From Planctomycetota bacterium (lineage in GTDB: Bacteria > Planctomycetota > Phycisphaerae > UBA1845): DNA of 58,871 nt. Location: positions 1 through 58,871 of the forward strand of contig JBBTCX010000166.1 in NCBI GenBank assembly GCA_038043045.1. Direction: 5' to 3'. The position numbers and the translations under genes were made by a program. Below the pieces are notes generated by a model. The model was not told the DNA's origin. It ran no database searches and saw only the letters and a list, made by a program, of their open reading frames with translations. This document shows positions 29,500-36,680 of this stretch, piece after piece; the first letter of the stretch is position 1; every line of letters begins with the position of its first letter.

Positions 29500-31500
29500 C
29501 TACGGACATGGACCCTGAGGCAGCGGCGACCCGATCATGCGAGAATAAGTTCCCGCGCCATTGAGCAAGTCCAACAGGCGAAGAAGATCGAGCGCGTTCG
29601 TTACTCCGCTGTGATCCATATCAAGCTGGTAGAGTGTGGCACTTGAACACGTTTGGGTGTGCGAAAATTGCTCCATGCAATCGACAGCCACGATGACATC
29701 GAGGGCATTAACGACGGAATCACCGTTTACATTTCCGGAATGAAAAATAAACGTGCCCTCGGATCCATCTCCTTCGTAGGTCAGGGTAGTCGCCGCCGAA
29801 GGAGTAATCGCACGGTCAAGTATAATCGTGTAGATGCCCAGTGGTCCTTCAAACACAGCCGCAATACCGTTAGCAAATCCATCGACGCGGGTCTCGCATA
29901 GCGTGAAGCATTCATCGTCCGCGCCTGACGGAGCTTGGACCGTGAGCACTTGGATTCCTTGTCGCGGAACGAAATCCACAATAGGGTGTGGTTGGCGAGC
30001 ATCGATGACGCCGTCCGGCGGATCCATGAAGATCACGCCACCTTTCTGTGGACAAAAAGGAGCGCGGCATGGCGGTTCAAATGGATCTGGCGTGCAAGCG
30101 CGATTAAAGGACCATCTGCCGGAGCATTGGTTTCGCAATTCGTCGTCGCTGCATTGGAACAAATCGCCGTCGCAGCAGGCCCCGCGCGCGGATTCACCGT
30201 AGCAAAAAACTCGTGATCGGAAGCTCCCGGCCGGGGTGCATCCGGTGCCGCCAGGGCAATTGGTCGGGGAAAATCCTCCAAAGTTTAGACCAGGCTCCCA
30301 TGTCCCCGTGTTTCGGGCATAGCCATCTTCGCTGGAGCCGACTTCTCCAAGACCGGCGGTCACCGGCCCCGAACTTCCCGTTGTCGTGGAAACCACGATC
30401 CAGAATTTAGCGGGAAGGACGGTCCCAGAGGGAAACGTCGGAGTGGCCAAGCGCTGGGTGTGCTGGTCGGACTGAATTCCGGCAAACGCCGCACGTGTTC
30501 CGGGAATGGGTAGAGCGGGTCGGTCGTCGATGGAGATGACGCCGTCTGGTCCCGGATCGTTTGTCCAAAGCTCTAATGTGGCACCGAATGAGGGCGTGCC
30601 GAGAGTTCCGGTGACCGACAACTCGTACTGGGCCAATTCGCAAGGGAGGGCCCCGGTGGAAAGACGAATATCGTCCGCGACTTGCGTGCTGAAAACGATG
30701 GGAAGAAAAGTACCGGTAAGAAAACGATTGTCGAAACCGAGATAGGTTGGCTCGCACGGATTCGGCGAACACGTGCTCCCGGTTCCTCGCCAAATTCCGG
30801 AACATTCGGATTCCGAGATCTCTTGACATGCTTCGTCGTTGCAGCACGCCCCTTTTGGTGGCGGTGGCAAATCGCATTCGAGCGTTGCCCAGAATCCGGA
30901 ATAAGGAAACGGAGGGCCCGGTCCGAAAAAGAAAAGGGAACACAGATTCGTAGCCGTACGCTCTAATGAAAAGAAATTGCCGGTGTGTCCGGTTTCGGCT
31001 TCTTCCGCGATGACCCAGCCGCTGGTGCTTGTGGAAAAGCCCACGCGCATCCAAACGATACCGGGAACGACTACCGGGTCGGTGAAGGATTGCCTAAGCG
31101 TCTGAGGTGAACCATTGGCCGGAAGGTCGGGCCAGTCTGATTCCGTTCCCGTGATCAGAACTCCGCCATTGCACGGGTCGCCATTCCACAGTTCCACATG
31201 TACGTCAAACATCCCGCCGCCGGTGCCCGCAACCAACAACTCGTAGGAGACCATTTCGCAACCGAACGGCTCTGTCGTGGTCAGATCGTCCGAAAGTATA
31301 ACTCCGAGTCCAGGAGCGCTAAAAAGTCCAGCGAATGTACGGGTATTCTCGTATACGATCGTACCGTTAAGAGTGCCGGCGATGACGGGTGTGGGTGCAT
31401 GACGGTATTCGCCGGTCGAAAGGGTGATCGCATCCTGTGCGATGCCATCGGCACAAATCATGGCGCAAAGCGCATGGAATAAGCATCGTCGGATATCCAA
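29500..31500 (-). CDS. Secreted Cys-rich repeat protein with a C-terminal dockerin-like module
   Basis: TTG start with GAGGGG upstream. Two internal units (SDDLTTTEPFGCEMVSYELLVAGT and ADDIRLSTGALPCELAQYELSVTGT) are each followed by a GACC...C...C motif. Tail GNVNGDSVVNALD...DMDHSGVTNALD. Confidence 0.8.
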   Translation of the reverse strand: MDIRRCLFHALCAMICADGIAQDAITLSTGEYRHAPTPVIAGTLNGTIVYENTRTFAGLFSAPGLGVILSDDLTTTEPFGCEMVSYELLVAGTGGGMFDVHVELWNGDPCNGGVLITGTESDWPDLPANGSPQTLRQSFTDPVVVPGIVWMRVGFSTSTSGWVIAEEAETGHTGNFFSLERTATNLCSLFFFGPGPPFPYSGFWATLECDLPPPPKGACCNDEACQEISESECSGIWRGTGSTCSPNPCEPTYLGFDNRFLTGTFLPIVFSTQVADDIRLSTGALPCELAQYELSVTGTLGTPSFGATLELWTNDPGPDGVISIDDRPALPIPGTRAAFAGIQSDQHTQRLATPTFPSGTVLPAKFWIVVSTTTGSSGPVTAGLGEVGSSEDGYARNTGTWEPGLNFGGFSPTNCPGGTGCTPAGSFRSRVFCYGESARGACCDGDLFQCSDDELRNQCSGRWSFNRACTPDPFEPPCRAPFCPQKGGVIFMDPPDGVIDARQPHPIVDFVPRQGIQVLTVQAPSGADDECFTLCETRVDGFANGIAAVFEGPLGIYTIILDRAITPSAATTLTYEGDGSEGTFIFHSGNVNGDSVVNALDVIVAVDCMEQFSHTQTCSSATLYQLDMDHSGVTNALDLLRLLDLLNGAGTYSRMIGSPLPQGPCP

Positions 31501-31694: not shown

Positions 31695-31722
31695 TTGACA
31701 GTTTCAAGTTTTTGAGTACGCT
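31695..31722 (+). promoter_or_regulatory. Sigma70 promoter for the protease-lipoprotein locus
   Basis: TTGACA (31695-31700), 16 nt, TACGCT (31717-31722). SD GGAG at 31756-31759 precedes ATG 31768. Confidence 0.55.
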
Positions 31723-31767
31723 TCCCGGCGTTACCCGTTTCGAAGTCCTTTTCTTGGAGAAGCTCAC

Positions 31768-32958
31768 ATGAAAACTCTGTTTTGGTCTTTGGTCTTGTTA
31801 TCACAAGTTCAGCCCGGACCCGTTTGGACGGGTTCAAGTGCGCCGCAGCGGAACCCTTATGGCCCGGTCGACATGGATGATGGGGGGCAGGGCACGGCGG
31901 ACCCTTATTGGCGCTTGATGACGCTTGCGGATTTTCTGGATACGGCGGAGGAAGAGTTGACCGCGACTGGAGTTGGCGAACCATTCGGGGTGAGTATGCG
32001 ACTTTCGGAGCCGACCGTTCAGTCGGGGTTGCCTATTTCGTCGGCGTTCGCGTTTGTGACGCTTTCCGTTCCCGGTGCGGATATCGGATCGGGAGAGCTT
32101 TCCATCGTGGCCAATTCGGATACCGGCGTAGTGAACTTCAGAATGGAGATCGTCGAGTTCGATGCGGTTCGGATTCTGGACCTTGATGTGACACTTTCCG
32201 GCGGCGTACTTTTGGAATGGGGAACGCTGAGCGTGGATACGGGTGCGACAACGACGACGTACTCCGGCGGGTGGGTGTATACGCACGCGGATGGCTTGTC
32301 GACGCACCCGGATTCGGATGAGGGGTTTCATGATGAAGCGGCGGTGATGTTTCATGTGATTCTGCCGGAGCCGGAGCGAAAAGGGAGGAGTCTGCGAGCG
32401 CCGCCGTTGCTCAGTACGATCTTCGCACACATTGGCAACATTGCCTCGCACTTGGTTGTATCAATCATCGACGCTTTTCGCCCCTACACCGCGCCGACTT
32501 CCTGTTCGGGGCCGATCGTCTATAACGGGGCTGGGCAAAGCTGCGAAAATGCGTTTCCCTGCTTAACCATACTGGAGGATCTCTGCCTAAAAATTGACGA
32601 GATTCCCGATGTTTCGGTAGCGTTCAAGAAGTGCATGAAGGGTCGATGCGGCTGCGGCGGGTCCAGCCATAGACGATTGCGGATTTCGTGTGACGATGCA
32701 AGCGATTGCGGGTCCTGCGGATCTGTCCCCGGTTGCAGCAACTTCGGCGCAACGATTTGGTATTGCGAGAACAACAATCTCGAGTGCCGATGTGCCGGAA
32801 TTGTGTTTCACGAAATGACACATTCTTGCGGCATAGGTCATTCGTTGGAGTACACTTTGAATCCGGATTGTGATATTCCCAATGACTCCGCGTGCCAGAT
32901 TGGTGAGATGTTCGAAGACGAATGCATAGCTGCGTCCCCCAATTTCGAGGAGCCATGA
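31768..32958 (+). CDS. Secreted protein with a Cys-rich C-terminal zinc-metallopeptidase-like domain
   Basis: Signal-like N-terminus. HEMTHSCGIGH (HExxHxxGxxH) at 32809-32841. 18 Cys in the last ~155 aa. Confidence 0.75.
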   Translation: MKTLFWSLVLLSQVQPGPVWTGSSAPQRNPYGPVDMDDGGQGTADPYWRLMTLADFLDTAEEELTATGVGEPFGVSMRLSEPTVQSGLPISSAFAFVTLSVPGADIGSGELSIVANSDTGVVNFRMEIVEFDAVRILDLDVTLSGGVLLEWGTLSVDTGATTTTYSGGWVYTHADGLSTHPDSDEGFHDEAAVMFHVILPEPERKGRSLRAPPLLSTIFAHIGNIASHLVVSIIDAFRPYTAPTSCSGPIVYNGAGQSCENAFPCLTILEDLCLKIDEIPDVSVAFKKCMKGRCGCGGSSHRRLRISCDDASDCGSCGSVPGCSNFGATIWYCENNNLECRCAGIVFHEMTHSCGIGHSLEYTLNPDCDIPNDSACQIGEMFEDECIAASPNFEEP

Positions 32959-33447
32959 ATGAAGTCGATCGTAAATGAGAATTGCCTAAATTGGGGCATG
33001 TACTGTTTGATATTTCCGCCGTTTTGCTTTTTGCTCGGGAATTTCAGTTGTCTTCCAGGAGATTGTGCGGATTATTTGAACGTCCAAGGGGTTGTGTTCG
33101 ATGGCGCCTCGGAGACGCCGCTAGTTGGAGCCTTTTTAGGCGGACGGGCATTCACGGCAGGATTGGAGACCGATTTTATTGCTGCGGTGATTTCTGACGG
33201 TGGCCCGAACGGACCGCCCTCCGATGAAAATGGACGATTTCTGTTGCCATTTTGGACTGGGCTGGGTAGGTGCCAGCCTTTCCCCGATTTCCCATTTCCA
33301 GATCTGGTGGAGATCATCGTTGTGCGAGATGGATGCGAACAGCGGTTCATGATTGATATCAATGAAGAAACCGTGGTTGACTTATCCGCGCCGAACGACA
33401 CCCTGCAACTTCGGGAGCCGATTCGCGTACCGGCGTGTCCGGGATAG
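32959..33447 (+). CDS. Array lipoprotein-like paralogue L1
   Basis: Abuts the protease stop, with SD GAGGAG inside the protease 3' end. Hydrophobic segment then FSC. Shares GAFLGG, DGGPNGPPSD and EIIVVRDGCEQRFMIDINEETVVDLS...LQLREPIRVPACP with L2 and L4. Confidence 0.8.
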   Translation: MKSIVNENCLNWGMYCLIFPPFCFLLGNFSCLPGDCADYLNVQGVVFDGASETPLVGAFLGGRAFTAGLETDFIAAVISDGGPNGPPSDENGRFLLPFWTGLGRCQPFPDFPFPDLVEIIVVRDGCEQRFMIDINEETVVDLSAPNDTLQLREPIRVPACPG

Positions 33448-33451
33448 GAGG

Positions 33452-33520
33452 CCGGATGGAACCGGGGATTGGTTTCAAGCAGAGTGTTTTGCTTCTTCGC
33501 CATCGCCTGAGGAGCCCTAG
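33452..33520 (+). pseudogene. Orphan copy 1 of the protease C-terminal tail
   Basis: Translates PDGTGDWFQAECFASSPSPEEP*, compared with the protease end PNDSACQIGEMFEDECIAASPNFEEP*. Carries the GAGGAG SD for L2. Confidence 0.75.
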
Positions 33521-33523
33521 AGA

Positions 33524-34009
33524 ATGAGTAGCAGTAAAAAAACAAAATCATTTCGCTCGAAGTTTTGTCTCCTCGGATTTACCCTGCTTTTGTGTTTGTT
33601 TGGAGCGAGCTGTGGGCCTTTGGGGCATTGCGAAGATTTTTTGTATGTGGAGGGGTTGCTGTTGGATGAGTCCTCGGGAGCGCCGATTGCGGGAGCGTTC
33701 CTGGGTGGAACAGCATTTACCGGAGGCGTGGAAACTGATTCCTACCCACCCGTGATCTTTGATGGAGGACCCAACGGGCCACCCTCTGACGCGCAGGGTC
33801 GATTTCGAATCGAGTTTGGAATTATCTTGGGTGGGTGCAATCCTCCGCCGGTGTTTCCAATGCCCGACCAAGTTGAAATTGTCGTCGTGCGCGATGGATG
33901 CGAACAGCGGTTTATGATCGACATCAACGAGGAAACCGTCGTCGACTTATCCGCGCCAGATGACATCTTGCAACTTCGAGAGCCGATTCGTGTGCCGGCT
34001 TGTCCCTGA
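33524..34009 (+). CDS. Array lipoprotein-like paralogue L2
   Basis: Basic N-region, hydrophobic core and LFGASC, with the same conserved blocks as L1 and L4. Confidence 0.85.
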   Translation: MSSSKKTKSFRSKFCLLGFTLLLCLFGASCGPLGHCEDFLYVEGLLLDESSGAPIAGAFLGGTAFTGGVETDSYPPVIFDGGPNGPPSDAQGRFRIEFGIILGGCNPPPVFPMPDQVEIVVVRDGCEQRFMIDINEETVVDLSAPDDILQLREPIRVPACP

Positions 34010-34085
34010 TGGGAAAGGGTGCGAGATTGGGGACAGGTTTCAGGATGAATGCGTAATTAGTTTACCCAATACGCCGGTTCCTTGA
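34005..34085 (+). pseudogene. Orphan copy 2 of the protease C-terminal tail
   Basis: Translates PDGKGCEIGDRFQDECVISLPNTPVP*. Same length (26 codons plus stop) as the protease segment at 32878-32958. Confidence 0.8.
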
Positions 34086-34568
34086 TTGCGGCAACGGAGT
34101 GTCATTTCCATGAAGCAGTTATTATTATTCCATCAGGCTGGGCTAACAGCCCGCGTTGCCGCACTCTTGGGGGGTGTCTGCTTTTTTCTGTTGAATAGCA
34201 CATGTATCCACCGCGATTGTTTTCCGTACCTGAATCTGCGGGGGCAAGTGCTGGACGCGGAAACCCAAAACCCTTTGTCCGAGGTAACAATTCGCGGGCG
34301 ATCGCTGAATGACGGTCAGTTGCCGCTTGGGTTTTACACCGAAGACATGCAAACGGTTGTTAATGGCACATTCCTTGTGAGTTTTGACGATGAACGAGGA
34401 ATTTGTGAACCATTTCCTATTCCGGATCAAGTGGAAATCACAGTTGTTCTAAGCACTTGCGATCGCGTGTTCTTGATAGAAGTGAACGCGGACACATTCG
34501 TCGACCCGACGTTTCCAATGATGGAGGGCGAGTTGCGCGAGTCCATTCTCGTTCCGCCGTGTCCCTGA
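34086..34568 (+). CDS. Array lipoprotein-like paralogue L3 (most diverged)
   Basis: Hydrophobic segment then NSTC. Keeps all Cys, GQVLDAETQNPL, PDQVEITVV and LRESILVPPCP. Start is TTG 34086 or ATG 34110. Confidence 0.75.
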   Translation: MRQRSVISMKQLLLFHQAGLTARVAALLGGVCFFLLNSTCIHRDCFPYLNLRGQVLDAETQNPLSEVTIRGRSLNDGQLPLGFYTEDMQTVVNGTFLVSFDDERGICEPFPIPDQVEITVVLSTCDRVFLIEVNADTFVDPTFPMMEGELRESILVPPCP

Positions 34569-34635
34569 TGGGAAGGCGTGCGAGATTGGGAACTGGTTTG
34601 AGGATGAATGTATCCTGGTCGAGCCGATACCATGA
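34564..34635 (+). pseudogene. Orphan copy 3 of the protease C-terminal tail
   Basis: Translates PDGKACEIGNWFEDECILVEPIP*. Confidence 0.8.
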
Positions 34636-34659
34636 TGCAAGTGGTCAAATAGTGACCGT

Positions 34660-35196
34660 ATGTGTCAATTGGAAGTGCCAAGGAGCGCAAGTGCTTTGGA
34701 ATTGTTGAAGATGAACATGAGATTTCGCGAACGACATGCGGATTCGTTTGCGGCCATCGAGTTGGCCGTCGTTGCGGTTTGGCTGGTCGGGTTAAGCGGA
34801 TGCATTTATGCACATTGTAGCGATTTTCTGTATTTGGACGGGATGCTTTTAGATGGGTCCGCCGGAGAGCCGATTGAAGGCGCCTTCTTAGGTGGAACGT
34901 CGTTTACCGGAGGAGAGGAAACTTACTCTTTCCCGGCCGTGATCTTTGATGGCGGACCTGACCAGCCACCCTCTGACGTTCAAGGTCGGTTTCTTCTGGA
35001 GTTTTCTTCTGATCTTGGCGGGTGCGATCCGCCGCCGGAGTTTCTGATGCCGGATCAGATAGAGATCGTCGTCGTGCGGGATGGGTGTGAACAGCGGTTC
35101 ATGATCGACATCAACGAAGAAACCGTGGTCGATCTTTCTCCGCCGAATGACACTCTGCAACTTCGGGAGCCGATTCGCGTGCCGGCGTGTCCGTAG
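34660..35196 (+). CDS. Array lipoprotein paralogue L4
   Basis: Canonical lipobox LSGC and the same conserved blocks as L1 and L2. Start may be ATG 34711 or 34717. Confidence 0.82.
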   Translation: MCQLEVPRSASALELLKMNMRFRERHADSFAAIELAVVAVWLVGLSGCIYAHCSDFLYLDGMLLDGSAGEPIEGAFLGGTSFTGGEETYSFPAVIFDGGPDQPPSDVQGRFLLEFSSDLGGCDPPPEFLMPDQIEIVVVRDGCEQRFMIDINEETVVDLSPPNDTLQLREPIRVPACP

Positions 35197-35270
35197 CAGC
35201 CATTTTTCTTGAATCCCGAATGCTACGCTGTTCTTGCGGGATTAAGCATTCGCTTTAGCATCATTTGCCG

Positions 35271-36680
35271 ATGCTTGAGCGATTAAATGAAACGATTGTG
35301 GCGATTTCGTCCGCGCCGGGGCGTGGGCCGGTGGGGATCGTTCGACTCAGCGGGGCGAAGGCGATTGAAATAGTCGGCCGGTTTGCGCGGTTGGCGTCCG
35401 GGAAGCAGATCATTGAAGTGCCCGGTTCAAATCGAGTATCGGGCGAGGTGTTGATCGATGATGAAGCGTCGGTGCCGGCGGAATTTTTGGTTTGGCGTGG
35501 GCCTCGAAGTTATACGCGGGAGGATGTCGTCGAGATTCATACGATCGGTTCGCCGCCGTTGTTGGAATTGATCCGGCAGCGAGCGGTGGAGTTGGGTGCG
35601 GTTGCGGCGCAGCCGGGTGAGTTTACGGCTCGGGCGTTTCTCAACGGGGCGATGGATCTTTCGAAGGCAGAGGCCGTCGCGGGATTGATTCGGGCACAGA
35701 GTGACACACAACTCCGCGCCGCGCACCGTATGATGGAGGGGCATCTTTCCGTGCGGGTGGCCGAGCTTCGGGACGCTCTCGCGGTAGTGTTGGCCCTTGT
35801 GGAAGCGGGGATCGATTTTGTGGATGAACCGATCGAGTTCATCCGAGCCGATGCCTTGTACGATGAGCTCGACCGGATTTCTCGACGCCTTTCTTCGATG
35901 ACCGCGGGTTCCGCGTCGGTGGAACGATTGACTACGCTACCGGTCATTCTACTCTTCGGTCGACCCAATGCAGGGAAGAGCACGTTGATGAATCGGTTGA
36001 GCGGCACGAGTCGGGCGATCGTCGCGGCCGTAGCGGGAACAACTCGAGATATCCTCTCCGCTCCGATTCAAATTGGAAAGGTGGAGGCGTTGCTTTTGGA
36101 CAGCGCGGGTGTGGATCAATCGCCGGAGGAGATCATCGCGGCCGCCCGGGAGATGACTCTGTCGACGGCGGAACATGCGGACCTGGTTTGCGCGGTCTTG
36201 AGTGCAGTGGAGGAATTGGAGGAGCAAACGCATATTCTAGAGACAGTGGCAGGCGCAAGGGTCGTGATTGCGTTGAATAAGATTGATGCAGTGTCACCGA
36301 ATGACGTTCAGTTATGCGTTTCGCGGCTTCAGGGTCAATTCCCTGGCGTCCAATGCATTTGCCCGATCAGTGCGAAAAACGGCGTAGGGTTGGATGAATT
36401 GCGGACAGCTTTGGCCGCCGGCATCGACGACAAAGGTCTGACCGTTTTGGGCGAGGCCTTGCTGATGACCGAAAGGCAGCGACAAGCCTTGGCGGATGCG
36501 TTGACCGCGCTCCAACGAGCAGTTGGGCTCGTCACCTTTGCCACCGATGTCAACGCTCAGGCGGAGCTTCTTGCATTTGAACTGCGCGAAGCGGCGGAGT
36601 TCTTGGGTGTGATGATCGGAGCCGTGACGACAGAGGACTTGCTCGGTCAAATCTTCTCAAAATTCTGCATTGGAAAGTAA
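35271..36680 (+). CDS. mnmE: tRNA modification GTPase MnmE
   Basis: ETIVAISSAPGRGPVGIVRLSG, SYTREDVVEIH, PGEFTARAFLNG, GRPNAGKS, AGTTRD, DSAG, NKID and C-terminal IFSKFCIGK. Confidence 0.97.
   Translation: MLERLNETIVAISSAPGRGPVGIVRLSGAKAIEIVGRFARLASGKQIIEVPGSNRVSGEVLIDDEASVPAEFLVWRGPRSYTREDVVEIHTIGSPPLLELIRQRAVELGAVAAQPGEFTARAFLNGAMDLSKAEAVAGLIRAQSDTQLRAAHRMMEGHLSVRVAELRDALAVVLALVEAGIDFVDEPIEFIRADALYDELDRISRRLSSMTAGSASVERLTTLPVILLFGRPNAGKSTLMNRLSGTSRAIVAAVAGTTRDILSAPIQIGKVEALLLDSAGVDQSPEEIIAAAREMTLSTAEHADLVCAVLSAVEELEEQTHILETVAGARVVIALNKIDAVSPNDVQLCVSRLQGQFPGVQCICPISAKNGVGLDELRTALAAGIDDKGLTVLGEALLMTERQRQALADALTALQRAVGLVTFATDVNAQAELLAFELREAAEFLGVMIGAVTTEDLLGQIFSKFCIGK

Follow-up and report, generated by a model that had tools for sequence, protein, structure and literature searches.

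A candidate polymorphic zincin and its array of lipoprotein genes in a groundwater planctomycete

Introduction

Why would one gene for an exported, zinc-protease-like protein be followed by four genes for small lipoproteins that are all related to each other? The question is raised by a stretch of 58,871 nt from a groundwater planctomycete (Phycisphaerae, UBA1845; GenBank assembly GCA_038043045.1, contig JBBTCX010000166.1), which we call the window and in which these genes occupy positions 31768-35196. An earlier note, made from the letters of the window alone, had proposed that the first gene encodes a secreted protease, that the first lipoprotein (L) gene encodes its inhibitor and that the other three protect against the protease alleles of related strains, in the layout of a polymorphic toxin locus. 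To our knowledge, almost no interbacterial competition systems have been defined experimentally in planctomycetes. The answer that the sequences point to, and that we hold with moderate confidence, is a polymorphic zincin that is secreted and whose catalytic domain occurs as alleles, each moving together with a cognate lipoprotein gene for inhibition or immunity, the displaced immunity genes being retained. What we observe directly is the anatomy of these loci, the pairing of the two genes, orphan protease fragments, mixed arrays, purifying selection and a patchy co-distribution.

Results

The protease-like open reading frame (ORF; 31768-32958, plus strand) encodes an exported, Cys-rich protein of 396 amino acids (aa) that carries the sequence HEMTHSCGIGH, and its stop codon abuts the ATG of L1 (TGAATG; L1 at 32959-33447, 162 aa), the product of which is the candidate cognate inhibitor or immunity protein. 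Three further L genes, which we refer to as orphans, follow on the same strand: L2 (33524-34009, 161 aa), L3 (34086-34568, likely start ATG 34110), which is of a distinct type, and L4 (34660-35196, likely start ATG 34711, MNMRFRER...), the last of the array. When the spacers after L1, L2 and L3 are translated, they prove to be diverged copies of the last 22-26 codons of the protease gene (CEIGxWFxDEC...stop), the part that corresponds to the predicted C-terminal helix of the catalytic domain. The counterparts of the protease 3' end (...ACQIGEMFEDECIAASPNFEEP, then stop) are three plus-strand stubs: stub 1 (PDGTGDWFQAECFASSPSPEEP, then stop; 33452-33520), a diverged copy of the last ~22 protease codons in the +1 frame relative to L1; stub 2 (PDGKGCEIGDRFQDECVISLPNTPVP, then stop; 34005-34085), which over 59 nt is 98% identical to a remnant located 3' of an L gene on another contig of the same genome (C172); and stub 3 (PDGKACEIGNWFEDECILVEPIP, then stop; 34564-34635), which is near-identical to the 3' end of a protease C-terminal paralogue on C172 and is matched by the protease hidden Markov model (HMM) at positions 305-336 (E 2e-4). 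Translation of the spacer 3' of L4 revealed no such copy.

Each stub is joined to the preceding gene in the same way, with the L stop codon overlapping the stub in the +1 frame. By sequence comparison, a 75-nt stretch made up of the 3' end of the L gene, its stop and the start of the tail (plus strand, 33977-34051, with a second copy at 34536-34610) is 83% identical at the nucleotide level between the L2 and L3 copies, though the L2 and L3 proteins are ~35% identical. This junction probably serves as recombination homology. The hexamer GAGGAG is found within the final codons of the protease (..FEEP-stop, 32941-32961), 6 nt before the L1 ATG, and within the end of stub 1 (..PEEP-stop, 33503-33526), 9 nt before the L2 ATG, so that every stub also serves as the native leader of the L gene behind it. 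Read in this way, the C-terminal codons of the protease double as a predicted Shine-Dalgarno-like ribosome-binding site for the gene that follows. Every stub is in the +1 frame behind a CCC-TGA or GGA-TAG junction, of which CCC-TGA is known from work in E. coli to be shift-prone. We considered a fusion of L proteins to the stubs by +1 frameshifting and find it very unlikely, as one ancestral junction explains the shared frame and the junctions in relatives differ. Selection on the stubs at the protein level was rejected as well, since four of the five differences between tails 2 and 3 change the amino acid, and a run of 25 codons without a stop has a chance probability of ~30%. The junctions at 34001-34031 and 34560-34590 read TGTCCC-TGA-TGGGAA and include a small palindrome, TCCCTGATGGGA.

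The assembly of the source genome (379 contigs, ~95% complete) contains a second, broken locus of the same kind. On C158 (9834-10589, minus strand) there is a truncated paralogue of the N-terminal half of the protease, 237 aa long, which runs into unrelated sequence at the point (~residue 212-226) where the C-terminal fragment on C172 begins. Contig C172 (1.36 kb) encodes a protease C-terminal domain, followed by an L gene and then by another stub, and at the end of C303 a stub separates an L3-like from an L4-like gene. The 3' end of the C172 protease (CEIGNWFEDECNLAGPTP, then stop) is near-identical to stub 3 of the window and to the C303 stub, and the L genes behind these three ends all share the signal peptide MNM(G/R)FRER. 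The C172-type catalytic end and the L4-type lipoprotein therefore make up a module, which is complete on C172, whereas in the window a stub and L4 are what is left of it. Within this genome, identity between paralogues is 88% in aa (92% in nt) in the N-terminal half vs 68-71% in the C-terminal domain; across genomes the trend is reversed, the N-terminal regions of the protease varying more than its C-terminal part. The C158 paralogue adjoins a HlyD/TolC-like efflux operon. A short multi-copy repeat is found at C172:1-61 and 1301-1361, at C303:18403-18456 and at many other contig ends, and also on C275 (18640-18912), where ~270 bp lie between its two ends. It is probably an insertion sequence-like or miniature inverted-repeat transposable element-like element inserted in the second protease/L locus, and the assembly breaks at C172 and C303 because of it. 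A single "joint" from 32851 to 34575, seen in Logan contigs from four groundwater metagenome runs, turned out to be just the C172 paralogue; these contigs are too fragmented to phase array variants.

The architecture seen in the window recurs elsewhere. A search of species-representative genomes with the protease profile yielded 13 loci in 10 metagenome-assembled genomes of Phycisphaerae/Planctomycetota; four more came from single-protein look-ups and 19 from a metagenome search with the L profile, and both HMMs were mapped onto the translated frames of every related locus. The order protease-then-L was found in 34 of 39 related loci, and in the other five the first L gene lies <=210 nt from a contig end. 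Searches started independently from the protease and from L recover the same pairing. The number of L genes per locus ranges from one to four, the longest arrays being those of the window and of locus L022. Two outcomes that the earlier note had named as fatal to its proposal thus did not materialise: there is no invariant protease with an identical four-gene array, array length being variable and alleles divergent, and L genes do not occur mostly without the protease.

Several of these loci also contain orphan pieces of the protease, each followed by its own L gene. In L011 and L033, the orphan fragment spans profile positions 186-334 and takes in the whole of the Cys-rich domain; every Cys and HEMSH are preserved, but a start codon and a signal peptide are absent. 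The corresponding unit in the window protease is the predicted catalytic domain (residues 240-396; 32485-32955, plus strand), and it recurs in L034 as well (profile 195-336). Locus L022 has two shorter fragments (207-334 and 233-336) and L012 one shorter still (290-334); orphan C-terminal fragments with their own L are also present in L035, and short stubs in the window and in C303/L030. The fragments break at conserved islands: where the Cys-rich domain starts, at FKKCMKGRCGCGG, around HEMxH and in the terminal helix with CEIGxWF. Up to CGPCG, the main and orphan domains of L011 are near-identical; beyond it, they are sharply diverged. Within L011:6070-8085, and in L033, the expressed and the orphan copy differ in the third zinc ligand (CGAMD vs CGAMHSLEY...), with an 11-residue Cys-containing insert, and two structural allele classes therefore coexist. 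Three further observations concern individual contigs. At L010:2-1181, a Logan contig, a protease homologue is spread over two reading frames, with its N-terminal part at 2-724 and its C-terminal part at 474-1181, which reflects either a frameshifted pseudogene or an assembly error; two L-type genes follow it. At L025:9690-10565, the N-terminal portion of a second protease copy (profile 6-188) comes after a protease-L pair. A small ORF with a weak RHS-repeat match follows this second copy, near the contig end.

Paralogue pairs among L1-L4 show ratios of non-synonymous to synonymous divergence (dN/dS) of 0.02-0.5, which is indicative of purifying selection, and the orphan genes are therefore maintained. 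Divergence is uneven along the mature protein, with a dN of 0.17-0.40 in the N-terminal half vs 0.01-0.065 in the C-terminal half and substantial synonymous divergence in both, and the faster-evolving half carries the long loops of the predicted sandwich. Recent gene conversion was considered as a cause of the C-terminal similarity of L1, L2 and L4 and rejected: dS in this half is 0.3-1.4, so that conservation must act at the protein level. In a phylogenetic tree of L, several orphans group with genes from other loci, namely L014_L2 with the first-position L genes of L015 and L047 (99/97), L037_L2 with L027_L1 (100/100) and L022_L3 with L038_L2 (99/99). In the window, L3 forms a long branch of its own, away from L1, L2 and L4; the L pairs of L019 and of L023 are local duplicates. 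From these groupings it follows that arrays expand in two ways, through duplication in place and through distinct types being retained or acquired. Among 151 sampled genomes of the class, the protease was found in one and L in two, one of the L matches being weak and partial; the protease/L pair is a rare accessory element.

What kind of proteins are these? In a collection of 5.8 billion proteins, the protease has 32 homologues, none of them annotated. The earlier note had been unable to assign either family to a described system, and this holds: scans of the protease and of L1-L4 against Pfam and NCBIfam gave nothing above threshold, and a PDB profile search with the protease gave only a chance match to a BON domain. 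In an alignment of 26 protease homologues, ~20 Cys are conserved, a FKKCMKGRCGCGGS block is invariant and the consensus reads VFHEMSHACGxxD, corresponding to a motif HExxHxxGxx(D/H), in which the H, E and H of HExxH and the Gly that follows are near-invariant. The third zinc ligand is D in most homologues and H in a subgroup that contains the window protease, where the motif reads HExxHxxGxxH (32809-32841, plus strand); likewise, IGEMF in the window corresponds to IGxWF in most homologues. Signal peptides are present in members of the family. Pfam scans of the 26 homologues returned only sub-threshold matches, all to metzincin families (Astacin, Reprolysin and Matrixin, E 0.08-0.3), and no match to Tox-MPTase1-5 or HopH1-like models even at E<=5.

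An AlphaFold2 (AF2) model of the window protease (predicted local distance difference test score (pLDDT) 81, predicted template modelling score 0.80) begins with signal-peptide-like and disordered residues 1-42, a helix (48-66) and a β-barrel (76-179), which are followed by a low-confidence basic linker (~195-211) and a long helix (212-237). The Cys-rich domain (240-396) is predicted to consist of a helix and a small three-stranded sheet, the HExxH helix (339-353), which would form the active site, and a closing C-terminal helix (374-389), an order of elements that would correspond to the zincin arrangement. A Foldseek search with the whole model was dominated by the N-terminal barrel, which gave weak lipocalin-like and PodA-like matches, none at E<=0.001. 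On alignment and model, the protease family thus appears to be an undescribed family of zincins that lacks a Met-turn, and its members would be active peptidases.

The four L genes, which the earlier note had described as paralogous, are true paralogues. L1, L2 and L4 are 57-63% identical to one another, L3 is an outlier at ~35-38%, and all four align across the whole mature length with four invariant Cys. The only close relative of L3 is a truncated copy at the end of C303. Using as a criterion a signal peptide ending in [LVI][ASTVI][GAS]C, canonical lipoboxes are found in most L relatives (NGC, GGC, AGC, LGC...), including the L proteins of C172 and C303; within the window only L4 has one (LSGC), L1-L3 having degenerate boxes in which the aligned Cys is kept. 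A word-based search with L gave almost no matches beyond this genome, and a full HMMER scan with the L profile retrieved 201 representative clusters, 121 of them at E<=1e-10, mostly of 150-200 aa. The AF2 model of L2 is confident (pLDDT 88), and Foldseek aligned it to transthyretin, 5-hydroxyisourate (HIU) hydrolase and CnaB-type β-sandwiches, so that the mature part of L2 is predicted to be a transthyretin-like β-sandwich. The models thus point to an undescribed family of transthyretin-fold lipoproteins.

The surroundings of the array in the window are as the earlier note had drawn them, except for one element. The ORF layout and the distances between the stops of L1-L4 (562, 559 and 628 bp) match the ORF list exactly, and the unrelated secreted protein on one side is a 666-aa Cys-rich protein encoded on the minus strand (29500-31500) with a C-terminal dockerin type I domain (Pfam, E 9e-6). 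On the other side, the ORF at 35265-36680 terminates in FCIGK, and by this ending, judged by eye, we take it to be MnmE. The single promoter that had been proposed was not confirmed, as a sigma-70 scan found no site 5' of 31768 and just chance-level sites inside the block; a terminator scan of the block was at chance level too, with nothing convincing. An operon comprising the protease gene and L1-L4 is nonetheless plausible because the protease stop abuts the L1 ATG, the remaining gaps are 76-142 nt and no convincing terminator intervenes. In related loci, the flanking genes are unrelated housekeeping genes that vary from locus to locus, and no secretion machinery was found among those inspected.

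Discussion

The first question raised by this locus, why an array exists at all, is answered best by its history. Our reading of L as an inhibitor or immunity protein that is specific to the allele of the catalytic domain encoded just upstream rests on the anatomy, which fits the logic of polymorphic toxins and of sequential displacement (PMC3482391, PMC5361080). The proposed order of an effector gene, its cognate immunity gene and trailing orphan cassettes is supported by the stubs, the pairing, the orphan modules, the variable and mixed arrays and the purifying selection on orphan L genes. The first gene would thus encode a Sec-exported protein composed of a carrier region (β-barrel and long helix) and a C-terminal disulfide-rich zincin catalytic domain, while the next gene would encode a lipoprotein with a disulfide-stabilised transthyretin-like β-sandwich, which would bind and block the cognate catalytic-domain allele in the envelope of the producer. 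The inherited unit would be the protease C-terminal region together with L. Recombination at the four conserved islands described above, from the beginning of the Cys-rich domain to the terminal helix (CEIGxWFxDEC), would install or duplicate such units, and each event would displace the older protease end and keep its L, which would generate arrays of L genes that are each preceded by the stub of a former protease. The retained L2-L4 would then neutralise the protease alleles of related cells, providing protection between strains, and may also act as substrates for allele switching.

Several results weigh against this reading. For the catalytic domain, no characterised peptidase is a significant match in sequence or fold (Pfam, PDB profile search and Foldseek on the whole model), and the conserved Met-turn by which metzincins are recognised is absent 3' of the motif in the alignment. 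No protease inhibitor is present among the 50 Foldseek matches listed for L, the fold of which is not that of a known inhibitor. Positive selection, sought in the variable half of L, is not apparent, there being no window of dN/dS above 1 and all pairwise values being below 0.5. In the L tree, window L1, L2 and L4 form a genome-specific clade, so that part of this array stems from local duplication and was not imported as foreign alleles. In L034, the catalytic domains of the main and the orphan copy are almost identical, which resembles a plain recent tandem duplication. Finally, the genome has no TssC, the sheath protein of type VI secretion systems (T6SS), Pfam detects no Rhs, PAAR, contact-dependent inhibition (CDI) or LXG domains, and the only export signal on the protease is that for Sec.

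Much of this would be explained by our main rival, in which the genes form a self-protection operon and nothing more. The protease would be an ordinary exoenzyme, for nutrition or surface remodelling, L a dedicated envelope-anchored inhibitor or latency factor, in the manner of potempins with KLIKK peptidases or of AprI/Inh with serralysins, and the arrays by-products of unequal crossing-over between conserved segments, perhaps providing dosage or sub-functionalised inhibitors, with no role in conflict between strains. A lone Sec signal in a genome with six secretins and no contact-dependent machinery is what this explanation leads one to expect, as are the local duplicates in the window, L019 and L023 and the near-identical orphan of L034. 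We nevertheless think it rather unlikely, because it accounts poorly for mixed arrays in which an orphan L is closest to the first-position L of other genomes, for the divergent catalytic-domain alleles inside the L011 locus, for purifying selection on orphans whose protease has been lost and for an extremely patchy distribution, like that of an accessory element. The same purifying selection argues against a role of L as client or helper of the zincin, be it a substrate matured by the protease, a dedicated chaperone for folding or disulfides or an anchor that ties the Cys-rich domain to the membrane, with alleles co-evolving for productive binding. The strict pairing, the abutting of the protease stop and the L1 start, the ~18-20 Cys of the catalytic domain and an L fold that is foreign to known inhibitors would all suit a helper, but once a protease allele is lost, its partners should not survive as orphans under such selection, nor should up to four L genes accumulate per protease gene, and the orphan catalytic fragments without start codons and signal peptides look like silent cassettes. 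This makes a helper or client improbable.

Even less probable, to the point that we give it little weight, is that the C-terminal domain is not a peptidase at all and is instead a Cys-rich module that binds zinc or another metal and contains HExxH by chance, the two proteins forming a pair for surface adhesion or recognition. The lack of a significant match to a peptidase family or structure, the missing Met-turn and a third "ligand" that alternates between H and D are in its favour. However, the H, E, H and the following Gly are near-invariant across 26 homologues, HExxH is predicted to lie on a helix after a three-stranded sheet and before a C-terminal helix, as in zincins, and the weak Pfam matches are without exception to metzincin families. 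Alternation of the third ligand between H and D is, besides, known in metzincins such as snapalysin.

How the protease would reach a target is a separate question. The signal peptide of the protease, the lipobox of L and the disulfide-forming Cys in both proteins imply that any interaction would occur in the envelope or extracellularly. The simplest route would be Sec export, perhaps with a type II secretion system (T2SS), and diffusible action. Carried one step further, the polymorphic-zincin reading would place the locus in an as yet unrecognised class of diffusible, Sec/T2SS-exported polymorphic toxins in which the zincin attacks the envelope or surface of related planctomycetes, the transthyretin-fold lipoproteins confer allele-specific immunity and silent catalytic cassettes switch weapon and shield together. 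This is a serious possibility that we would stop short of calling probable. If this is correct, Phycisphaerae would have their first defined interbacterial toxin/immunity system, which would also be the first such system to do without any contact-dependent apparatus. Whatever the target, two uncharacterised families are tied together by a strict, recombining gene-pair architecture, which leads to the concrete prediction of allele-specific protease/inhibitor pairs. Were this prediction true, it would define a new zincin family and a new inhibitor fold, a transthyretin-like lipoprotein with variable loops, and it would reveal the evolution of orphan-immunity arrays outside T6SS, Rhs and CDI systems, making "sequential displacement" a general process that is independent of contact-dependent secretion.

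Comparison with known systems shows which parts of this picture are familiar. Serralysin is a secreted metzincin-type protease encoded beside a periplasmic inhibitor, AprI/Inh, that protects the producer. The earlier note had drawn this parallel, which stands for the layout and fails for homology: none of the five proteins has a Pfam match to the AprI/Inh family, the inhibitor has a different fold, and serralysin has a single inhibitor gene, is exported by a type I secretion system and has neither arrays nor allelic cassettes. Another parallel in organisation is offered by the potempins of Tannerella forsythia, small lipoproteins (~100-130 residues) encoded beside secreted KLIKK peptidases, each inhibiting its own neighbour (PMC9890683), which also form repeated protease/inhibitor pairs within one locus. 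Unlike L, the potempin genes lie upstream of the peptidases, which belong to several catalytic classes and are exported by a type IX secretion system, and orphan inhibitors preceded by protease stubs are not described. We detected no sequence relationship with potempins, L having no Pfam or NCBIfam match to the potempin or AprI/Inh families.

The Rhs/CDI polymorphic toxins, with their orphan C-terminal toxin/immunity cassettes (Zhang et al. 2012, PMC3482391), resemble our loci in that the immunity gene lies directly downstream, and in that orphan C-terminal pieces without a promoter or start codon come with an immunity gene of their own behind each of them. These toxins join a conserved N-terminal region to a variable C-terminal enzymatic region, a contrast that the protease shows between paralogues of one genome and not across genomes. 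Toxin domains of the metallopeptidase type (Tox-MPTase1-5, HopH1-like) form an established class among them and occur in planctomycetes too (PMC3482391). Unlike these toxins, the protease described here matches no Tox-MPTase or other Pfam toxin model and has no RHS, filamentous-haemagglutinin, PAAR or LXG trafficking domain; its variable part is an allele series of one fold instead of a set of different folds, and its domain is disulfide-rich, so that it would act outside the cytoplasm. The array itself has a counterpart in the T6SS clusters of Vibrio cholerae, where orphan immunity arrays arise by sequential, recombination-driven displacement of effectors (Kirchberger et al. 2017, PMC5361080). 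In both cases there is one expressed effector, its immunity gene and then further immunity genes, and the 3' end of the displaced effector is shifted downstream together with its immunity gene. The differences are that our loci have no T6SS and no structural secretion genes nearby, that the effectors all belong to one enzyme family and not to unrelated toxin types, and that one lipoprotein family supplies all the immunity candidates. Systems of this kind are known, while its components, a zincin family and a family of transthyretin-fold lipoproteins, and its setting, in Planctomycetota and without a contact-dependent apparatus, are new.

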